Of a stretch of 5,955 nt of DNA, positions 809 to 5,805 are shown in pieces. Source of the DNA: a virus (lineage: Duplodnaviria; Heunggongvirae; Uroviricota; Caudoviricetes); the IMG/VR virus record IMGVR_UViG_2663763000_000004. One strand, given 5' to 3'. The first letter of the stretch is position 1. Each line of letters begins with the position of its first letter. A model generated the notes under the pieces. That model worked only from the letters and a program-made list of their open reading frames with translations. It searched no databases and had not been told where the DNA came from. The position numbers were made by a program, and so were the translations under genes.

Positions 809-997
809 TCACAGTACCGCCTCCTGAAAATTGCCCTGATAGAACGCCAGTACACGCAGCATAACTTCACTCTTCCGGCACTCGCCACAGATTATGTTCT
901 GTTGTCTGTCGTAGCGGCGTATTTCTCCGTCTGGTAACTTTCGAATCAATGTCTGGTCGGTTGTTTTCTCCGCTGCCTTACGCCATACGCGATACAC
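809..997 (-). CDS. small hypothetical protein (62 aa, GTG start)
   Basis: Open frame filling the gap between two better-supported minus-strand genes, abutting the upstream stop. Start is GTG and I see no Shine-Dalgarno; contains a CGEC motif. Support is weak. Confidence 0.3.
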   Translation of the reverse strand: MYRVWRKAAEKTTDQTLIRKLPDGEIRRYDRQQNIICGECRKSEVMLRVLAFYQGNFQEAVL

Positions 998-1204
998 CTA
1001 TTCTGATGTAAAAACACCGTATTTACCGGGCATGTATAAATCGCCACAAGCCAGTACATCCACAAGGCAACGTCTGACTGAATGCCAGCCTGCTCCCGTC
1101 GCTCTCTCCAGTTGTGATATCGTCATGCGTTCATTTTTGCGTACCAGCCCGATAATTCGGGCCTTCAGTTCTTCACGCTGTTCGTGTGTAAAAGGTTTCG
1201 CCAT
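998..1204 (-). CDS. small helix-turn-helix (winged-helix-like) DNA-binding protein, about 68 aa
   Basis: ORF 998-1219, but position 1219 is a TTG; the in-frame ATG at 1202-1204 has GGAGG (reverse complement of 1210-1214) 5 nt upstream. The stretch MTISQLERATGAGWHSVRRCL looks like an HTH recognition region. Confidence 0.55.
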   Translation of the reverse strand: MAKPFTHEQREELKARIIGLVRKNERMTISQLERATGAGWHSVRRCLVDVLACGDLYMPGKYGVFTSE

Positions 1205-1219
1205 AAGCGCCTCCGGCAA

Positions 1220-1990
1220 TCACTTTTCCGACACAATACGACCGGATGAATCGACAATCTGCCGAACAATATCCCGGTGCTTGTTCAGCTCCCGCAGCGC
1301 GGCGCAGACACGCTCCCACTTCTGAACCTGACCTTTTGCCCGGCGCAGCTCGCGGTTAGCCACATGCAGCGATGGTAAAATCAGACCATCCGGATGTTTT
1401 CTGGTGAACAACGGCTGTGACTGCACTGTGACCGCCACACTTTCAGTTTTTATTTCTTCCTGTGTTTCCGCTTCCCGGACTGGTAACGCAACACCTGTTG
1501 GCTGAGGAAAGGCTTTACCATCGGTTTCCGTTACCGATGCAGCTTCCGGCTCTGCCGGTAAATCAGCGCCCGGTATGCAGTAACGAAATTTACCGTTCTG
1601 ATTTACGCGTGCCAGGCGCCCCGTTGCTGTTACGACCGCCAACGTGGAAGCAACCTTGCGAATGCTAACACCGAACTTATCCGCCAGTTCCTCACACGTT
1701 TTAGCCCCATCCTGACAGATAAACTCAATCATCATGTCCGCGGTAACTTTTTGTTCGACCTCCCCGGTCAGCACATCCGGTACTTCAGACTGTGCTGGCT
1801 GCTCTTCGGTTACCCCGGATTCACCTTCACCAGCCAGAAACCAGGTGTGACCCGTTTTATCAACAACGCCATTTTTTTTGAGTTCCCACAGTTCGTTGAG
1901 AACTTCTTCACGGCTGATATCAAGCCGCGCCGCCAGTTCAACAGAATTGGCTTTACCCATCGCTTTCAGTGCATGCAATACGGTTTCCAT
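1220..1990 (-). CDS. phage protein with two winged-helix-like repeats (possibly DUF1627-like), about 256 aa
   Basis: ORF 1220-2041. Two ATG starts are possible: 2041 (overlaps the DnaC-like 3' end by 29 nt, weak and distant SD) and 1990 (GGGAGG 8 nt upstream, 22 nt after the DnaC-like stop), which I prefer. Two similar segments, [29 protein letters not shown] and [28 protein letters not shown], look like repeated wHTH units. The DUF1627 label is recall only. Confidence 0.6.
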
Positions 1991-2012
1991 TAAAACTTCC
2001 TCCCGGTAAAAA

Positions 2013-2759
2013 TCACTTCGCAATTCCTGGCTGGACGACATTCGGACGCCAGCTCTCCCAGTTAAAATTCACCCATCGCCCGCCGTTCATGGTCATGCGA
2101 TCCATAATCCGCTCGCCGAGCAATGTTTTCATGGCCTCATAGTTCAGGTTTGTCAGCATCCCCACGCTGCGCATCGACGCTGTCCGGCGATCAACAATCT
2201 GGTGCAGCACCACCTGCTCGTTTTTCGTCTCGCGCTGAATGCCAATTTCATCAAGAACCAGCAGATCTACTTCGCACAGCTCCCGCAAAAATTTTTCGCC
2301 TGACTGCCCGTCGTCATAGCTGGCGTGCAGGGCGCTCATAACATCAGCCACGGTAACCACAATCACTGTCTGACCGTCTTTCAGCAGGCGATTCCCGATA
2401 GCTGCCGCTAAGTGATTCTTCCCGGTACCAGGTTTTCCGCTGAACGCAAAATTTGTACACCCGGTCATCAGTTCATCGGCGATGGATTTCGCCTGGCTTA
2501 ACGCGTATCGCTGGCCGTCGTTCTGCACCTGGTAATTCGCAAACGAGCATTTACGGTGCAACGGCTGGATGCCTGAACGATTCAGAATTTTTTCCACCCG
2601 CAACTGGCGATTCAGGCGGTTGATCTCCTCGCTACGTTTCTGGCCTTCAGCAAGTTGCCACTCGCGCCACTCCGCTACCGTTCTGAATGGGGCGGTTACA
2701 TGTGGCGGGGTCAGTCGGCGGATGCGTTCCAGAACGCCGCCTGTCGCAATATTTTTCAT
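2013..2759 (-). CDS. DnaC-like replicative helicase loader (AAA+ ATPase)
   Basis: 248 aa with ATG start. Walker [18 protein letters not shown] and Walker [10 protein letters not shown]; the N-terminal MKN...[18 protein letters not shown] and C-terminal [23 protein letters not shown]...[10 protein letters not shown] stretches are near-colinear with E. coli DnaC as I remember it. Sits immediately downstream of the O-like gene, as in the Rac ydaU-ydaV arrangement. Confidence 0.9.
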
Positions 2760-2765
2760 GGTCCG

Positions 2766-3554
2766 TTACCCCCTGAAGCCTGGCGGGATCGCACTGTCCG
2801 GCAACGAGACAGTGTTAACCTGTCGGAGCAACGTCTCAGGCCGAACACCTTTCGGCGCGAACAGGCCCTGGTATTCATTGGCGATGCTGTGTCGAATCAC
2901 CTGCTCAGGTGTAAAACCCTGCTGACGGAATTTTTCCAGCTCCCGTATCGCCCCGTTAGCGCCCTGCTCCGTTCGAATCGGTTTTCGCAATGCCTGCCTG
3001 AACTTAACCCACTCATGCCAGAGTGTTTCCGGCAACCAGTCAGGCAGCTCGATAGCCTCCGGCTCGAATTTTTTAGACGCTCGTTTTTGGCGAGGGGGAT
3101 TTAGGGGGAGATCAGTATTTATATCTTCCTCTTCCTCTTCCTCTGGTAACGCTTTTTGATCCGTTTGTGTAACGCTGCCAGCGTTACCTTTTCGTTTCAG
3201 TTCGCGTATTTTTGTAACTCGCTCGTTTGTAACCGCCCGTTTTTTAGAGCTTTTTCCGTTATGACGTTCAAAGTTAGGTAGAGAAAGCCCACCGTCATTT
3301 TCGACCAGCCATCCAACCTGAATTAACGCATCAGCAAAACCAGCCATAAAAGTGATGCGGTCTATTGCACTTTTTGTAACGCCGCGAGCGTTACAATCTG
3401 CATTACCGTCTATCATTTGTTGATCCGCCCATGCCCAGAAGCGAATAACCTTCCCTAATGCGGCATCTGGATCAATATTCAGAATCTCAGCAAGCCTGAA
3501 TATTTCCGGCTTATCCGGCGTAATAACCTCGAGCTTTATCCAGTTTGAAGCCAT
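2766..3554 (-). CDS. phage replication initiator / replisome organiser (lambda O analogue, YdaU position)
   Basis: 262 aa; ATG at 3552-3554 with AAGGTG 7 nt upstream. Lies directly upstream of, and nearly abutting, the DnaC-like gene. The middle of the gene carries an iteron-like repeat cluster and an acidic EEEEEED linker, as lambda O carries ori. Family is assigned from position and architecture, not from recognised sequence identity. Confidence 0.7.
   Translation of the reverse strand: MASNWIKLEVITPDKPEIFRLAEILNIDPDAALGKVIRFWAWADQQMIDGNADCNARGVTKSAIDRITFMAGFADALIQVGWLVENDGGLSLPNFERHNGKSSKKRAVTNERVTKIRELKRKGNAGSVTQTDQKALPEEEEEEDINTDLPLNPPRQKRASKKFEPEAIELPDWLPETLWHEWVKFRQALRKPIRTEQGANGAIRELEKFRQQGFTPEQVIRHSIANEYQGLFAPKGVRPETLLRQVNTVSLPDSAIPPGFRG
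3145..3237. repeat. iteron-like repeat cluster inside the O-like gene (candidate replication origin)
   Basis: GTAACGC half-sites at 3146-3152 and 3169-3175, inverted GCGTTAC at 3181-3187, and variants GTAACtCGC (3214-3222) and GTAACcGCC (3229-3237); includes the 19-bp palindrome GTAACGCTG-c-CAGCGTTAC (3169-3187). Followed toward the gene 3' end by a pyrimidine-rich (CTTCCT)3 tract and an AT-rich patch (3110-3145). Confidence 0.5.
3374..3396. repeat. second copy of the GTAACGC-N5-GCGTTAC palindrome (TTGTAACGC-cgcga-GCGTTACAA)
   Basis: 9-bp perfect inverted arms inside the 5' part of the O-like gene; same core as 3169-3187 and 3566-3588. Confidence 0.5.
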
Positions 3555-3565
3555 TTGTTTTCACC

Positions 3566-3588
3566 TTGTAACGCTCGCAGCGTTACAT
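3566..3588. repeat. third copy of the GTAACGC-N5-GCGTTAC palindrome, just upstream of the O-like RBS
   Basis: TTGTAACGCt-cgc-aGCGTTACA in the 77-bp spacer between the YdaT-like stop and the O-like start, 14-30 nt upstream of the O-like ATG. No flanking T-run or A-run, so it is not a terminator. Confidence 0.5.
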
Positions 3589-3631
3589 TTAACTGATACC
3601 GAACAAAACAATCCGGCACGATCAATTTCAA

Positions 3632-4054
3632 TCAATGCACTACGACAGAATCGCCGGGCGACCCACCACCGCTGAAATGTGCTTTCCGGTAAACGGCCTG
3701 GACTGCATCATCATGCGCATCAATTGCCGTACTCAACGCTTCCTGCGCCGCCAGTAATGCACGGCGTTCCAGGGTATCGAAGATGCAGAGTCGGTGACGC
3801 AGCTCGCGCGGAAGAATTGCCAGAACCGCAGGGATCAGTTTCTGAATTTTTTCCCTTTGCGCTTTCGTTTCACCTTTCAACCAACGGTGATAGATATTCT
3901 GCTGATTGTTCCAGTCCTTGCCTGGTACAAGGGGCAATTCGCCGCCCCCCTGGCGCAGATATTCTTCAGTAATTGCGTTAGCGACCCACGCCTGCCCTTT
4001 TTCGGCTGCCAGGGCTAACAACACTGATTCGATGTGCTCATGCCTGATTTTCAT
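3632..4054 (-). CDS. ydaT: YdaT-family protein (CII-like regulator / putative toxin of the Rac ydaS-ydaT module)
   Basis: 140 aa; ATG at 4052-4054 overlaps the Cro-like stop as ATGA. The sequence MKIRHEHIESVLLALAAEKGQAWVANAITEEYLRQGGGELPL... matches my recollection of E. coli K-12 Rac YdaT (also 140 aa) very closely. It occupies the cII position between cro and the replication genes. Confidence 0.7.
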   Translation of the reverse strand: MKIRHEHIESVLLALAAEKGQAWVANAITEEYLRQGGGELPLVPGKDWNNQQNIYHRWLKGETKAQREKIQKLIPAVLAILPRELRHRLCIFDTLERRALLAAQEALSTAIDAHDDAVQAVYRKAHFSGGGSPGDSVVVH

Positions 4055-4293
4055 GAATCAACCGCTCCTATGCTGTTTTCGCTATGCTTACCGTCTGGGG
4101 GGAATACATCGTCAAGTCCACAATGAGCGCCAAGCCGATTAAGGGTAGAAACAATTTTTCTGCACTCCTCTAGTCCAGGGGTACGAAAATTTGCTTCGTA
4201 ATTTGCCAGTCGGCTTTGTATCCACCCTAACTGAACAGCAAGTTGTCTTTGAGACAGCCCAAGCTGTTTTCGATATGTTGAAATTTTGTTCAT
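4051..4293 (-). CDS. Cro-like HTH-XRE transcriptional regulator (80 aa)
   Basis: ATG at 4291-4293 with GGAGG (reverse complement of 4301-4305) 6 nt upstream. N-terminal HTH QLGLSQRQLAVQLGWIQSRLANYE of the Cro/C1 (XRE) type. First gene of the minus-strand operon, divergent from the repressor. Confidence 0.8.
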   Translation of the reverse strand: MNKISTYRKQLGLSQRQLAVQLGWIQSRLANYEANFRTPGLEECRKIVSTLNRLGAHCGLDDVFPPDGKHSENSIGAVDS

Positions 4294-4389
4294 TGAAAAC
4301 CTCCGATGACAATTTTAAACACACCTTGTGTTATATGGTCAATCTGTTTTGTGTTTTATGTAAATCACGATTCGTGATACAAGGATGCA
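4294..4389. promoter_or_regulatory. divergent immunity control region (PR-like / PRM-like promoters with operator candidates)
   Basis: 96-bp AT-rich spacer between the divergent HTH genes. Contains a 15-bp inverted repeat AACACAcctTGTGTT (4318-4332), a 15-bp perfect palindrome ATCACGAtTCGTGAT (4364-4378) just upstream of the repressor SD, and direct repeats TTGTGTTaTATG (4326-4337) and TTGTGTTtTATG (4349-4360). On the minus strand, a TTGACC, 17 nt, TTTAAA/TAAAAT arrangement could be the promoter for the Cro-like gene. Confidence 0.6.
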
Positions 4390-4809
4390 ATGGAAAAAGA
4401 AAACGAAAAAATTGCCGCTAGTAGGCTCAATGACAAAATTGCAATGCGTCTTAAAGAGCGCAGGCAGAAGCTTGGTTTATCTCAAGGAAAACTTGCTGAA
4501 ATCTGCGGATGGACGCAATCGCGTATAGGTAACTATGAGGCGGGCAGCAGAAATGTTGGAGTGCATGACGCTGTCGTATTGGGAAAGGCACTTGGCATAT
4601 CTCCTCCTGAGCTCCTATTTGGAGAACAGGAATCTTCTGAATTGTGGTTAAATGAATCCCAACGAAAACTTCTTGAGTTGTTTAACCAGCTACCTGGCTC
4701 AGAACAACAACGAATGATTGAGCTATTTGAAGTCCGGCTAAAAGAAATCGATGAGTATGTAGAAAAATATTTGAGAGGCAGGCTTAAAGATAATCCCCCA
4801 CCGGAGTAA
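4390..4809 (+). CDS. DicA-like prophage repressor (N-terminal HTH-XRE, C-terminal dimerisation region, no S24 peptidase domain)
   Basis: 139 aa; ATG at 4390 with AAGGA 4-5 nt upstream. HTH KLGLSQGKLAEICGWTQSRIGNYE; the C-terminal SQRKLLELFNQLPGSEQQRMIELFEVRLK resembles the DicA C-terminus (SPKELELLELFNALPESEQ...) as I recall it. Divergent from the Cro-like gene. Confidence 0.8.
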   Translation: MEKENEKIAASRLNDKIAMRLKERRQKLGLSQGKLAEICGWTQSRIGNYEAGSRNVGVHDAVVLGKALGISPPELLFGEQESSELWLNESQRKLLELFNQLPGSEQQRMIELFEVRLKEIDEYVEKYLRGRLKDNPPPE

Positions 4810-4838
4810 TGATCTTGCTATCACAGTAATATGCCAAT

Positions 4839-4864
4839 CAGCCCGCTATCAGCGGGCTTTTTTG
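4839..4864 (+). terminator. rho-independent terminator downstream of the repressor gene
   Basis: Perfect 8-bp GC-rich stem AGCCCGCT (4840-4847) / AGCGGGCT (4851-4858) with a 3-nt loop ATC, followed by a T-run (4858-4863), 30 nt after the repressor stop. Confidence 0.8.
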
Positions 4865-4892
4865 TACCATCATCATATGACACCCACCACAA

Positions 4893-4935
4893 AACACATT
4901 TCGTGTTGACATAAGAAAACGCATTGTGTTTAATA
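4893..4935 (+). promoter_or_regulatory. PL/OL-like promoter with overlapping operator-like palindromes, driving the downstream accessory gene
   Basis: -35 TTGACA (4906-4911), 17-bp spacer, -10 TTTAAT (4929-4934) with TG at 4927-4928. The inverted repeat AACACatttcGTGTT (4893-4907) overlaps the -35, and an imperfect repeat AAACGCattGTGTTT (4917-4931) overlaps the spacer and -10. The motif AACAC-N5-GTGTT is the same as at 4318-4332. Confidence 0.55.
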
Positions 4936-5103
4936 AGCATATCCAAACAACGCCCCACCAGAGAACGGCTGGACAATACCTCGAGTTATCCAGCCACTGA
5001 ACAGGGCTAAGTAGCCAGCCTGAGGCATACGAACATGACGGCAGTTGTTGATTGATACAAAGCGCAGTAGATAAAACGTTCCGCCACCCGGCGTTAAGGG
5101 GAA

Positions 5104-5805
5104 ATGAGGTCAACANNNNNNNNNNNNNNNNNNNNNNNNNNNNNNNNNNNNNNNNNNNNNNNNNNNNNNNNNNNNNNNNNNNNNNNNNNNNNNNNCCAGG
5201 AGATTGCAGCACACACACTTCGTCATCGTCTGAACGAACTTGAATTGGAATCGGTAACGAAAAAAGACACTGATAATATGGCTCGTAATGTGCGCGATGC
5301 GTTTACCGGATTGTATTTCTGTGCGTCTATAAATAAACACGACTCAGAGAGTGTGGCAAATAAAATTGCAGAAACGACAGCGCAAAACATCAATACGAAA
5401 CCAACGGAAGAAGAAATTGATCAGTTTGCTCATGATGCTGGTTTAAAAAACAAGAAAGAAAAATCGCCATATGCGGGGAACATGTTTGTTTATGACAATC
5501 TCATCAGAATTCGTGGCGAAATTCCGGCGGAATACCTGGCAAGAGTCCATCAGGCATTGCTTAAAAATTTGGAAACAGAATTATTTGATGGCAACACTAA
5601 CGGTTTCTTCATGGTATCAGGCCTTGAGAAAGACTGGGATGCAGAAAAACGCTGGAATGTTGCTACATGGTTATTCAGTAACAGAGCCGCTGCACTGGAA
5701 GCTTCGGCATGTATTTGCGGCCTGTTCTTAACAGACCACAAATATAATCTGGATGTGTACAGTTATATTTACGCTGAACACGGTCCACTCTGGATTGACT
5801 GGTAA
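5104..5805 (+). CDS. hypothetical protein of unknown function; lower-GC accessory gene in the cI-proximal position, interrupted by an assembly gap
   Basis: ATG at 5104 with strong SD AAGGGG (5095-5100); 80 N at 5116-5195; then a continuous open frame 5196-5805 ending in TAA (5803-5805). Hand-counted GC in three 60-nt blocks (5281-5460) is roughly 35-43 percent, against roughly 50 percent in a replication-gene block (2401-2460). The gap length, and so the frame link between 5104 and 5196, cannot be trusted; an in-frame ATG at 5278 has no SD. No motif I recognise. Confidence 0.5.
   Translation: MRSTXXXXXXXXXXXXXXXXXXXXXXXXXXXQEIAAHTLRHRLNELELESVTKKDTDNMARNVRDAFTGLYFCASINKHDSESVANKIAETTAQNINTKPTEEEIDQFAHDAGLKNKKEKSPYAGNMFVYDNLIRIRGEIPAEYLARVHQALLKNLETELFDGNTNGFFMVSGLEKDWDAEKRWNVATWLFSNRAAALEASACICGLFLTDHKYNLDVYSYIYAEHGPLWIDW
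5116..5195. other. assembly gap (80 N)
   Basis: Run of exactly 80 ambiguous bases, a conventional scaffold-gap placeholder. Confidence 0.99.

Follow-up and report, generated by a model that had tools for sequence, protein, structure and literature searches.

The closest described counterparts of the locus are the immunity regions of two Escherichia coli prophages, Rac of strain K-12 (Wons et al. 2025, PMC11879457) and CP-933P of O157:H7 (Jurenas 2021, PMC8630535; Prolic-Kalinsek 2023, PMC9986795; PDB 8bt1). In both, YdaS and YdaT have been described as analogues of Cro and CII (PMC5917428, PMC8630535). In the work on Rac, K-12 YdaT is a tetrameric, DNA-binding helix-turn-helix activator, and the residues mutated in it include H56 and R57 (and W58) at the DNA contact and L107 and A110 in the tetramerisation helix (PMC11879457). 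The same study describes a footprinted YdaT-box, ATGATTCATGAAAATCAA, an inverted repeat over ydaT's own ATG on which both a 29-fold activation of leftward transcription and a rise in racR expression depend. The YdaT-dependent activity is assigned there to PracR4, a predicted promoter located ~190 bp from the box and inside ydaS (PMC11879457). In CP-933P, where paaR2 and ydaS-ydaT follow the same logic of CI, Cro and CII analogues, YdaT recognises TTGATTN6AATCAA at the cro/ydaT junction (PMC9986795) and activates a cryptic leftward promoter, PRE933P, at the ydaS/ydaT junction (PMC8630535). No detectable effect of YdaT was found on the PRM-type promoter of CP-933P, and the CP-933P papers give differing accounts of where PRE933P lies relative to the box.

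The lambda cI/cro-cII region shares this functional layout, with an activator site and the promoter PRE at the cro/cII junction (PMC8630535, PMC11879457). Lambda PRE likewise overlaps the start of the activator gene and is antisense to cro. However, the YdaT site is an inverted repeat, whereas the lambda CII site consists of direct TTGC repeats. [quoted passage not shown] The locus described below retains the ydaT gene, the YdaT-box and the divergent layout of repressor, cro analogue and CII analogue known from K-12 Rac, with a Cro of another family and an unrelated repressor.

The locus and its exchanged cassette

The DNA analysed is a stretch of 5,955 nucleotides, referred to as the window, and is part of a Rac-like lambdoid prophage of E. 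coli. Many E. coli strains have chromosomal prophage DNA that agrees with positions 3560-4400 at 99.9% identity. In the genome NZ_CP159875 the locus is ordered recT-recE-kil ... repressor / cro-ydaT-ydaU-like-ydaV-DUF1627-DUF977, and kil, ydaE, recE, recT and ralR follow on the repressor side. This backbone (recET, kil, ydaU/V-like genes, DUF1627 and DUF977) is that of K-12 Rac, and the arrangement is that of a lambdoid immunity region, with divergent repressor and cro genes, the CII analogue and replication genes on the cro side, and the early-left genes (kil, recET in the NZ_CP159875 annotation) on the repressor side. The cro analogue (80 aa, 4051..4293) and ydaT (140 aa, 3632..4054) are both minus-strand genes in the list of open reading frames. 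They correspond in near-identical genomes to the RefSeq coding sequences WP_001033914.1 (helix-turn-helix regulator) and WP_000702025.1 (toxin YdaT family). A 96-bp divergent promoter/operator region (4294..4389), in which the operators are putative, separates cro from the gene for a CI-like repressor of 139 aa (4390..4809, plus strand; Pfam HTH_3, E 4.7e-13), which is an annotated coding sequence in NZ_CP159875. Directly after the repressor gene, the consensus scan found a terminator-like hairpin (4840..4858, plus strand) with an 8-bp stem of which 6 pairs are GC, followed by the T-run TTTTTTGT. Downstream of the cro-ydaT pair lie a YdaU-like, replication-initiator-like gene (262 aa, 2766..3554, minus strand; a half-length match to K-12 YdaU), a DnaC/YdaV-like helicase loader gene (2013..2759, minus strand; NCBIfam PRK12377, 509 bits; Pfam IstB_IS21) and genes with DUF1627, DUF977 and DUF551 matches in Pfam and NCBIfam.

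Two irregularities were seen elsewhere in the window. A run of 80 N at 5116-5195, where the sequence is masked or unresolved, interrupts the start of a 233-aa open reading frame (5104-5805), and past about 5104 the window has no alignment to NZ_CP159875. The DUF977 gene (809-1219, minus strand) carries an in-frame TAG at 998-1000 that divides it into reading frames of 73 and 62 aa; its counterpart in NZ_CP159875 is a single coding sequence of 423 nt, and the split gene is probably a nonsense-mutated pseudogene of the window's prophage.

A preliminary description of this DNA had paired a YdaT-like protein with an XRE-type protein unlike YdaS, and the BLASTP and HMM searches agree with it on both genes, placing the first in the YdaT family and finding no YdaS family member in the second. 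By its sequence, the 140-aa protein is YdaT, a CII-analogue transcription activator of the Rac type; the family consists of tetramers with a POU-like helix-turn-helix. The protein scores 43.3 bits for Pfam PF06254 (YdaT_toxin), whose cut-off is 21 (E 5.1e-11), is identical to K-12 Rac YdaT at 133 of 140 residues (95%; 93% for the DNA), and gives full-length phmmer matches to the YdaT-family structures PDB 3c4r and 8bt1. H56, R57, W58, L107 and A110 align with the same residues in K-12 YdaT, and the seven substitutions (K4R, F13L, T64A, I77V, S133P, D134G and I138V) lie elsewhere. Its relationship to the YdaT of CP-933P is a distant one (phmmer match to 8bt1 with E about 1e-6; 35% identity by tblastn for the CP-933P type).

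The 80-aa protein matches XRE-type models only, HTH_3 (PF01381) with 39.3 bits against a cut-off of 23. The YdaS model PF15943 found no match in it even at E<=10, while K-12 YdaS reached 107.7 bits in the same Pfam search, and BLASTP against K-12 YdaS returned no alignment at E<=100; hidden membership of the YdaS family was rejected on these negatives. The models for lambda Cro (PF09048) and P22 Cro/DicC (PF14549) also went unmatched at E<=10, the DicC-like cro product of other ydaT loci scoring 49.7 bits for PF14549 in the same search. The nearest solved structure is 28tn, a 'lambda repressor-like protein' (E 8e-15). Over the helix-turn-helix the protein shares 45% of its residues with the adjacent repressor, those of the segment GW(I/T)QSR(L/I)xNYEA among them, as is expected of a cognate Cro/CI pair competing for operators. 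A Cro function is inferred from these resemblances. The pair presumably parallels that of phage 434, in that Cro and repressor are both HTH_3 proteins with 45% identity over the helix-turn-helix. However, a PDB search with the 80-aa protein gave no direct homology to the 434 proteins, and the downstream activator of the window, unlike that of 434, is YdaT.

The repressor consists of an N-terminal XRE helix-turn-helix and a DicA-like C-terminal part, DicA being its best NCBIfam match at a score below the cut-off of that model. Unlike the lambda repressor it has no S24 autocleavage (peptidase) domain; sequence comparison detected no homologue of lambda Cro or CII among the window's proteins. No similarity to RacR was found. 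The Cro and the repressor thus both set the window apart from K-12 Rac, whose Cro analogue belongs to YdaS/PF15943. CP-933P also differs, with a YdaS-like Cro and a repressor operon that includes the paaA2-parE2 toxin-antitoxin genes, which are absent from the window. The intergenic region contains the cro Shine-Dalgarno sequence GGAGG (4304..4300) and two perfect palindromes, AACACA-CCT-TGTGTT (4318-4332) and ATCACGA-T-TCGTGAT (4364-4378). These are putative operators, an assignment that is weak because the two palindromes differ from each other.

The pairing of cro with its repressor is not uniform among genomes. Nine of the 162 genomes that matched the cro-plus-repressor query cover <80% of it, and in the three such genomes among the matches listed (H60-H62) the cro part alone was matched. 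In strain PEC178 (L387, NZ_CM168017.1, 2486-3215) the cro DNA is identical to that of the window, whereas the intergenic sequence differs and the repressors share only 64% identity. The junction falls exactly at the cro start codon, and TCGTGAT, part of one of the palindromes, is kept. The result is a hybrid immunity region, with a Cro that may not match the repressor and operators beside it.

Comparison with K-12 Rac by BLASTN shows homology at only three places in the window, 1532-3127 (86% identity), 3634-4060 (93%) and 4951-5102 (76%). The segment between the last two (4061-4950), which contains cro, the operators and the repressor gene, is unrelated to K-12 Rac; in direct alignment the K-12 identity starts exactly at TGATTCATGAAAATCA, and upstream of it nothing aligns. 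With K-12 homology absent over 4061-4950 and resuming at the box, the exchanged unit is, on this alignment, the whole immunity cassette, and ydaT is its conserved neighbour. Since the exchange ends at the box, a non-YdaS Cro abuts a 95%-identical YdaT and its gene ends in the TGA of the box. The earlier idea of module shuffling with YdaT kept is thus correct as regards the swap and the retained ydaT; the two-gene cro/ydaT unit that it implied is replaced by the cassette 4061-4950. On the other side of ydaT, the C-terminal 124 residues of the YdaU-like protein are 81% identical to K-12 YdaU, and the N-terminal half (3128-3633) has no K-12 similarity and no Pfam match, so that the N-terminal half found in K-12 Rac is replaced. 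The YdaU-like protein is a chimera, and ydaT an island between segments replaced on both sides.

The YdaT-box and the cro/ydaT overlap

The stop codon of cro (TGA, 4053-4051) and the start codon of ydaT (ATG, 4054-4052) overlap as ATGA, read as TCAT at 4051-4054 on the plus strand, as the preliminary description had noted. Around them lies the box TTGATTCATGAAAATCAG (4061..4044, minus strand), which spans the ydaT ATG, holds the cro TGA and consists of the half-sites TTGATT and AATCAG about a central CATGAA. It is the only strong box match within the window. The left half-site equals the CP-933P consensus, and the single mismatch to TTGATTN6AATCAA is in the right half-site (AATCAG instead of AATCAA). 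Compared with K-12, the outer bases differ (TTGATT...AATCAG in the window, ATGATT...AATCAA in K-12). The last codons of cro run through the box as GTT GAT TCA TGA, giving a protein that ends in ...VDS.

The YdaT-box lies on the start codon of ydaT throughout the 304 usable ydaT loci of the survey described below, in four YdaT lineages. The spacing between cro and ydaT varies by cro cluster, at -4, -17, -1, +3 or +22 nt in these loci. The overlap of 4 nt seen in the window, which differs from the 22-nt gap of K-12 Rac, is also the exclusive arrangement in three other cro clusters and occurs in 2/3 loci of a fourth. The gene ydaT has a Shine-Dalgarno sequence of its own, AGGAG (4065..4069, minus strand), 10 nt before its ATG and within the cro coding sequence, and a GGAG/CTCC element is found at the same place in most cro classes.

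These observations bear on whether the overlap is a selected device for translational coupling that fixes the ratio of Cro to YdaT in this allele. In its favor, all but one of the 51 loci in the window's cro cluster have the 4-nt overlap, a separate scan with cro found it in all loci of >=98% identity with a called downstream gene bar one variant, and the K-12 operon is bicistronic (PMC11879457). However, the TGA, as part of the conserved box, is there also at loci where cro stops elsewhere, the spacing varies from class to class, and the AGGAG of ydaT is at a workable distance. Because the TGA is within the box, any upstream ORF that enters in that frame stops there, and together with the variable spacings and the separate AGGAG this explains the overlap with no need for selection on coupling. 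Coupling is possible and not required, given that ydaT has its own ribosome binding sequence, and a selected coupling device is doubtful. The ATGA overlap is instead a by-product of the YdaT-box and of the frame in which cro enters it.

A candidate promoter adjacent to the box

When the repressor-ward strands of the loci are aligned with the box as an anchor, they fall into 17 box-proximal sequence groups that otherwise have little in common (median identity 31% across 45 nt). In 16 of these 17 groups, which are not fully independent and of which at least 10 are clearly unrelated, a hexamer TAnnnT begins 20 or 21 nt beyond the box; the one exception reads CAAAAT. Position 2 of the hexamer is A and position 6 is T in all 17 groups, and TGn precedes the hexamer in 6/17. 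TAnnnT has a background frequency of 0.02 at any one offset, and every other pair of adjacent offsets gives at most 4/17. Loci with the conserved offset are L036, L237, L300, L096, L307, L146, L208, L177, L114, L137, L009, L217, L222, L140, L158 and L163. In the window the hexamer is TATGCT (4083-4088), which falls in the Cro-tail codons K-H-S, and its K-12 counterpart is TATGAT. A third YdaT lineage, which is paired with relatives of the window's cro, has a -10-like hexamer too. The position of the hexamer puts the center of the box at about -41.5/-42.5, a location typical of class II activators.

This conservation suggests that TAnnnT is the sigma-70 -10 element of a box-proximal, PRE-like promoter activated by YdaT. 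The predicted promoter of the window, with its -10 at 4083..4088 on the plus strand, would be antisense to cro and directed towards the repressor gene. Its position fits the PRE of CP-933P at the cro/ydaT junction and departs from the K-12 assignment to PracR4. Either the mechanism differs between the window and K-12, or the published PracR4 assignment is imprecise.

YdaT could instead act from afar, on a promoter deep within cro as described for PracR4 or by looping to intergenic sites. In PMC11879457, activation depended on the box in a construct where PracR4 was ~190 bp away, and K-12 YdaT bound to the racR-ydaS intergenic region; the window's intergenic region also contains a weak box-like sequence (4351-4368, 3 mismatches). 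However, by the same text PracR4 was predicted by software, its start was unmapped and the activation assay mutated the box alone (PMC11879457). In the window's cro, which is unrelated to ydaS, the consensus scan found no promoter on the plus strand over 4062-4293, and a PracR4-like promoter within this gene was rejected on that basis; the scan of 3500-4900 gave matches on the minus strand only, no more than in shuffled sequences. The box-like sequence at 4351-4368 is at chance level as well, since six matches with up to 3 mismatches were found where 4.3 were expected, and it is a weak lead only. A TAnnnT 20-21 nt from the box, in K-12 (TATGAT) as elsewhere, is the simpler geometry, and action at a distance seems unlikely. 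On balance, we lean slightly towards a compact PRE cassette in which the box and the -10 element together straddle the cro/ydaT boundary, the establishment promoter would lie next to the box in every Rac-like and CP-933P-like prophage, that of K-12 included, and the box would serve as a recombination linker.

Partners of ydaT and the prophage switch

The survey of what precedes ydaT comprised 304 usable loci from the window, K-12, GTDB genomes and IMG/VR contigs, found with queries from four YdaT lineages (Rac, CP-933P, Klebsiella type and Salmonella type). The best 80 matches per scan were kept, with a bias towards close relatives of each query, and the single-protein scan of GTDB genomes contributed 9 loci, so that the survey is mainly one of IMG/VR. 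The ORFs preceding ydaT in the 304 loci form 17 protein clusters, of which at least 15 are credible cro types. The cluster representatives belong to YdaS/PF15943 (several clusters), to P22_Cro/DicC (PF14549), to HTH_3 (the window's type), or to no Pfam family. Among the matches listed, cluster C0 is paired with 45 Rac-type and 27 CP-type ydaT loci, and cluster C2 with 27 Rac-type and 18 CP-type loci. The same cro before a Rac-type or a CP-933P-type YdaT implies that recombination has taken place to either side of the box. The window's own cro cluster (51 loci) is found with Rac-type ydaT alone among the matches listed. However, relatives of this cro at 75-85% identity precede the third, divergent YdaT-family lineage (one member scores 29.7 bits for PF06254), in which the ATG is again within an inverted repeat. 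The survey thus documents a free exchange of immunity cassettes at the YdaT-box.

A few loci are unusual. In the IMG/VR contigs L385 and L379 (1742-2236), a YdaT-like gene that scores 19 bits against the cut-off of 21 follows 75%-identical cro relatives; the C-terminal third of its product is unlike that of L374, which may reflect a frameshift. A 5.2-kb contig (L007, JARKOR010000130.1) from a metagenome-assembled genome named 'Candidatus Nanosynbacter sp.' carries K-12-type ydaS (truncated) and ydaT at ~95-97% protein identity, and is almost certainly E. coli contamination of the Nanosynbacter bin. The phage record PP818812.1 contains the cro-ydaT pair at 95.5% identity (hit H16, 7077-7743). 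It is titled Actinobacillus phage vB_Apl-pPE4, and the segment is unexpected for a Pasteurellaceae phage; the host may be mis-assigned, or an E. coli prophage may have been present in the preparation.

Prevalence was determined over 5426 complete E. coli genomes. Rac-type ydaT DNA is present in 1509 of them, K-12-type ydaS in 1089, and cluster C0 cro, the commonest alternative, in 1046. The window's cro-plus-repressor cassette occurs in 162, and 160 cover at least 80% of the query 3560-4400 (ydaT, cro, the intergenic region and the start of the repressor gene). The arrangement is common and already annotated, a product of ordinary lambdoid mosaicism and an ordinary allele of a known prophage switch.

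The remaining alternative is that the pair behaves as a type II toxin-antitoxin-like module, with YdaT as the toxin and the XRE protein swapped in for YdaS as antitoxin or autoregulator. The names 'YdaT_toxin' and 'toxin YdaT family protein' persist in Pfam and RefSeq, ectopic K-12 YdaT is toxic (PMC5700377, PMC11879457), and the 80-aa protein has weak, sub-threshold NCBIfam matches to XRE antitoxins of the HipB, MqsA and Y4mF types. However, these matches reflect generic HTH_3 similarity far below the cut-off, and the protein resembles the neighboring repressor. At least 15 unrelated cro types precede ydaT, even near-identical ydaT, where an antitoxin should co-vary with its toxin. Jobling, citing a 2010 study, reports no evidence of toxin-antitoxin behavior (PMC5917428), YdaS and YdaT of CP-933P are regulators and not a toxin-antitoxin pair (PMC8630535), and in PMC11879457 K-12 YdaT binds upstream of the host gene rcsA and raises RcsA, which is linked there to the toxic filamentous phenotype. 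The toxin-antitoxin framing raised in the preliminary description finds no backing in this work on homologues (PMC8630535, PMC5917428, PMC11879457), and with context and partner diversity also against it this reading is rejected as very improbable.

Positions 3632-4809 are, with high probability, the immunity region of a Rac-like prophage with CI, Cro and CII analogues, whose cassette has been exchanged at the YdaT-box. In such a switch, Cro (80 aa) and the repressor (139 aa) would compete for operators in the 96 bp between their genes. YdaT, the product of the second gene of the rightward operon, would bind as tetramers at 4044-4061 over its own start codon and activate the leftward PRE-like promoter with its -10 at 4083-4088. 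Transcription from there would cross cro in the antisense direction and continue into the repressor gene, which would favor repression and lysogeny. The cro-operators-repressor cassette (4061-4950) was replaced, by recombination ending at the YdaT-box, with that of another immunity type. For the window's proteins, box binding, activation of the repressor gene and the lack of toxin-antitoxin behavior are carried over by analogy from the literature on homologues.

These results are of modest interest to specialists in phage regulation and leave general concepts unchanged. They have some value for annotation, as the label 'toxin YdaT' invites a Cro/CII-analogue part of a prophage switch to be misread as a toxin-antitoxin module. 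The box-proximal promoter gives a testable position for the establishment promoter, on which the published descriptions of K-12 and CP-933P disagree. If it is correct, every cro allele, of whatever family, must encode the -10 element in its last ~14 codons, and the box would be a recombination linker that allows immunity cassettes to be freely exchanged.
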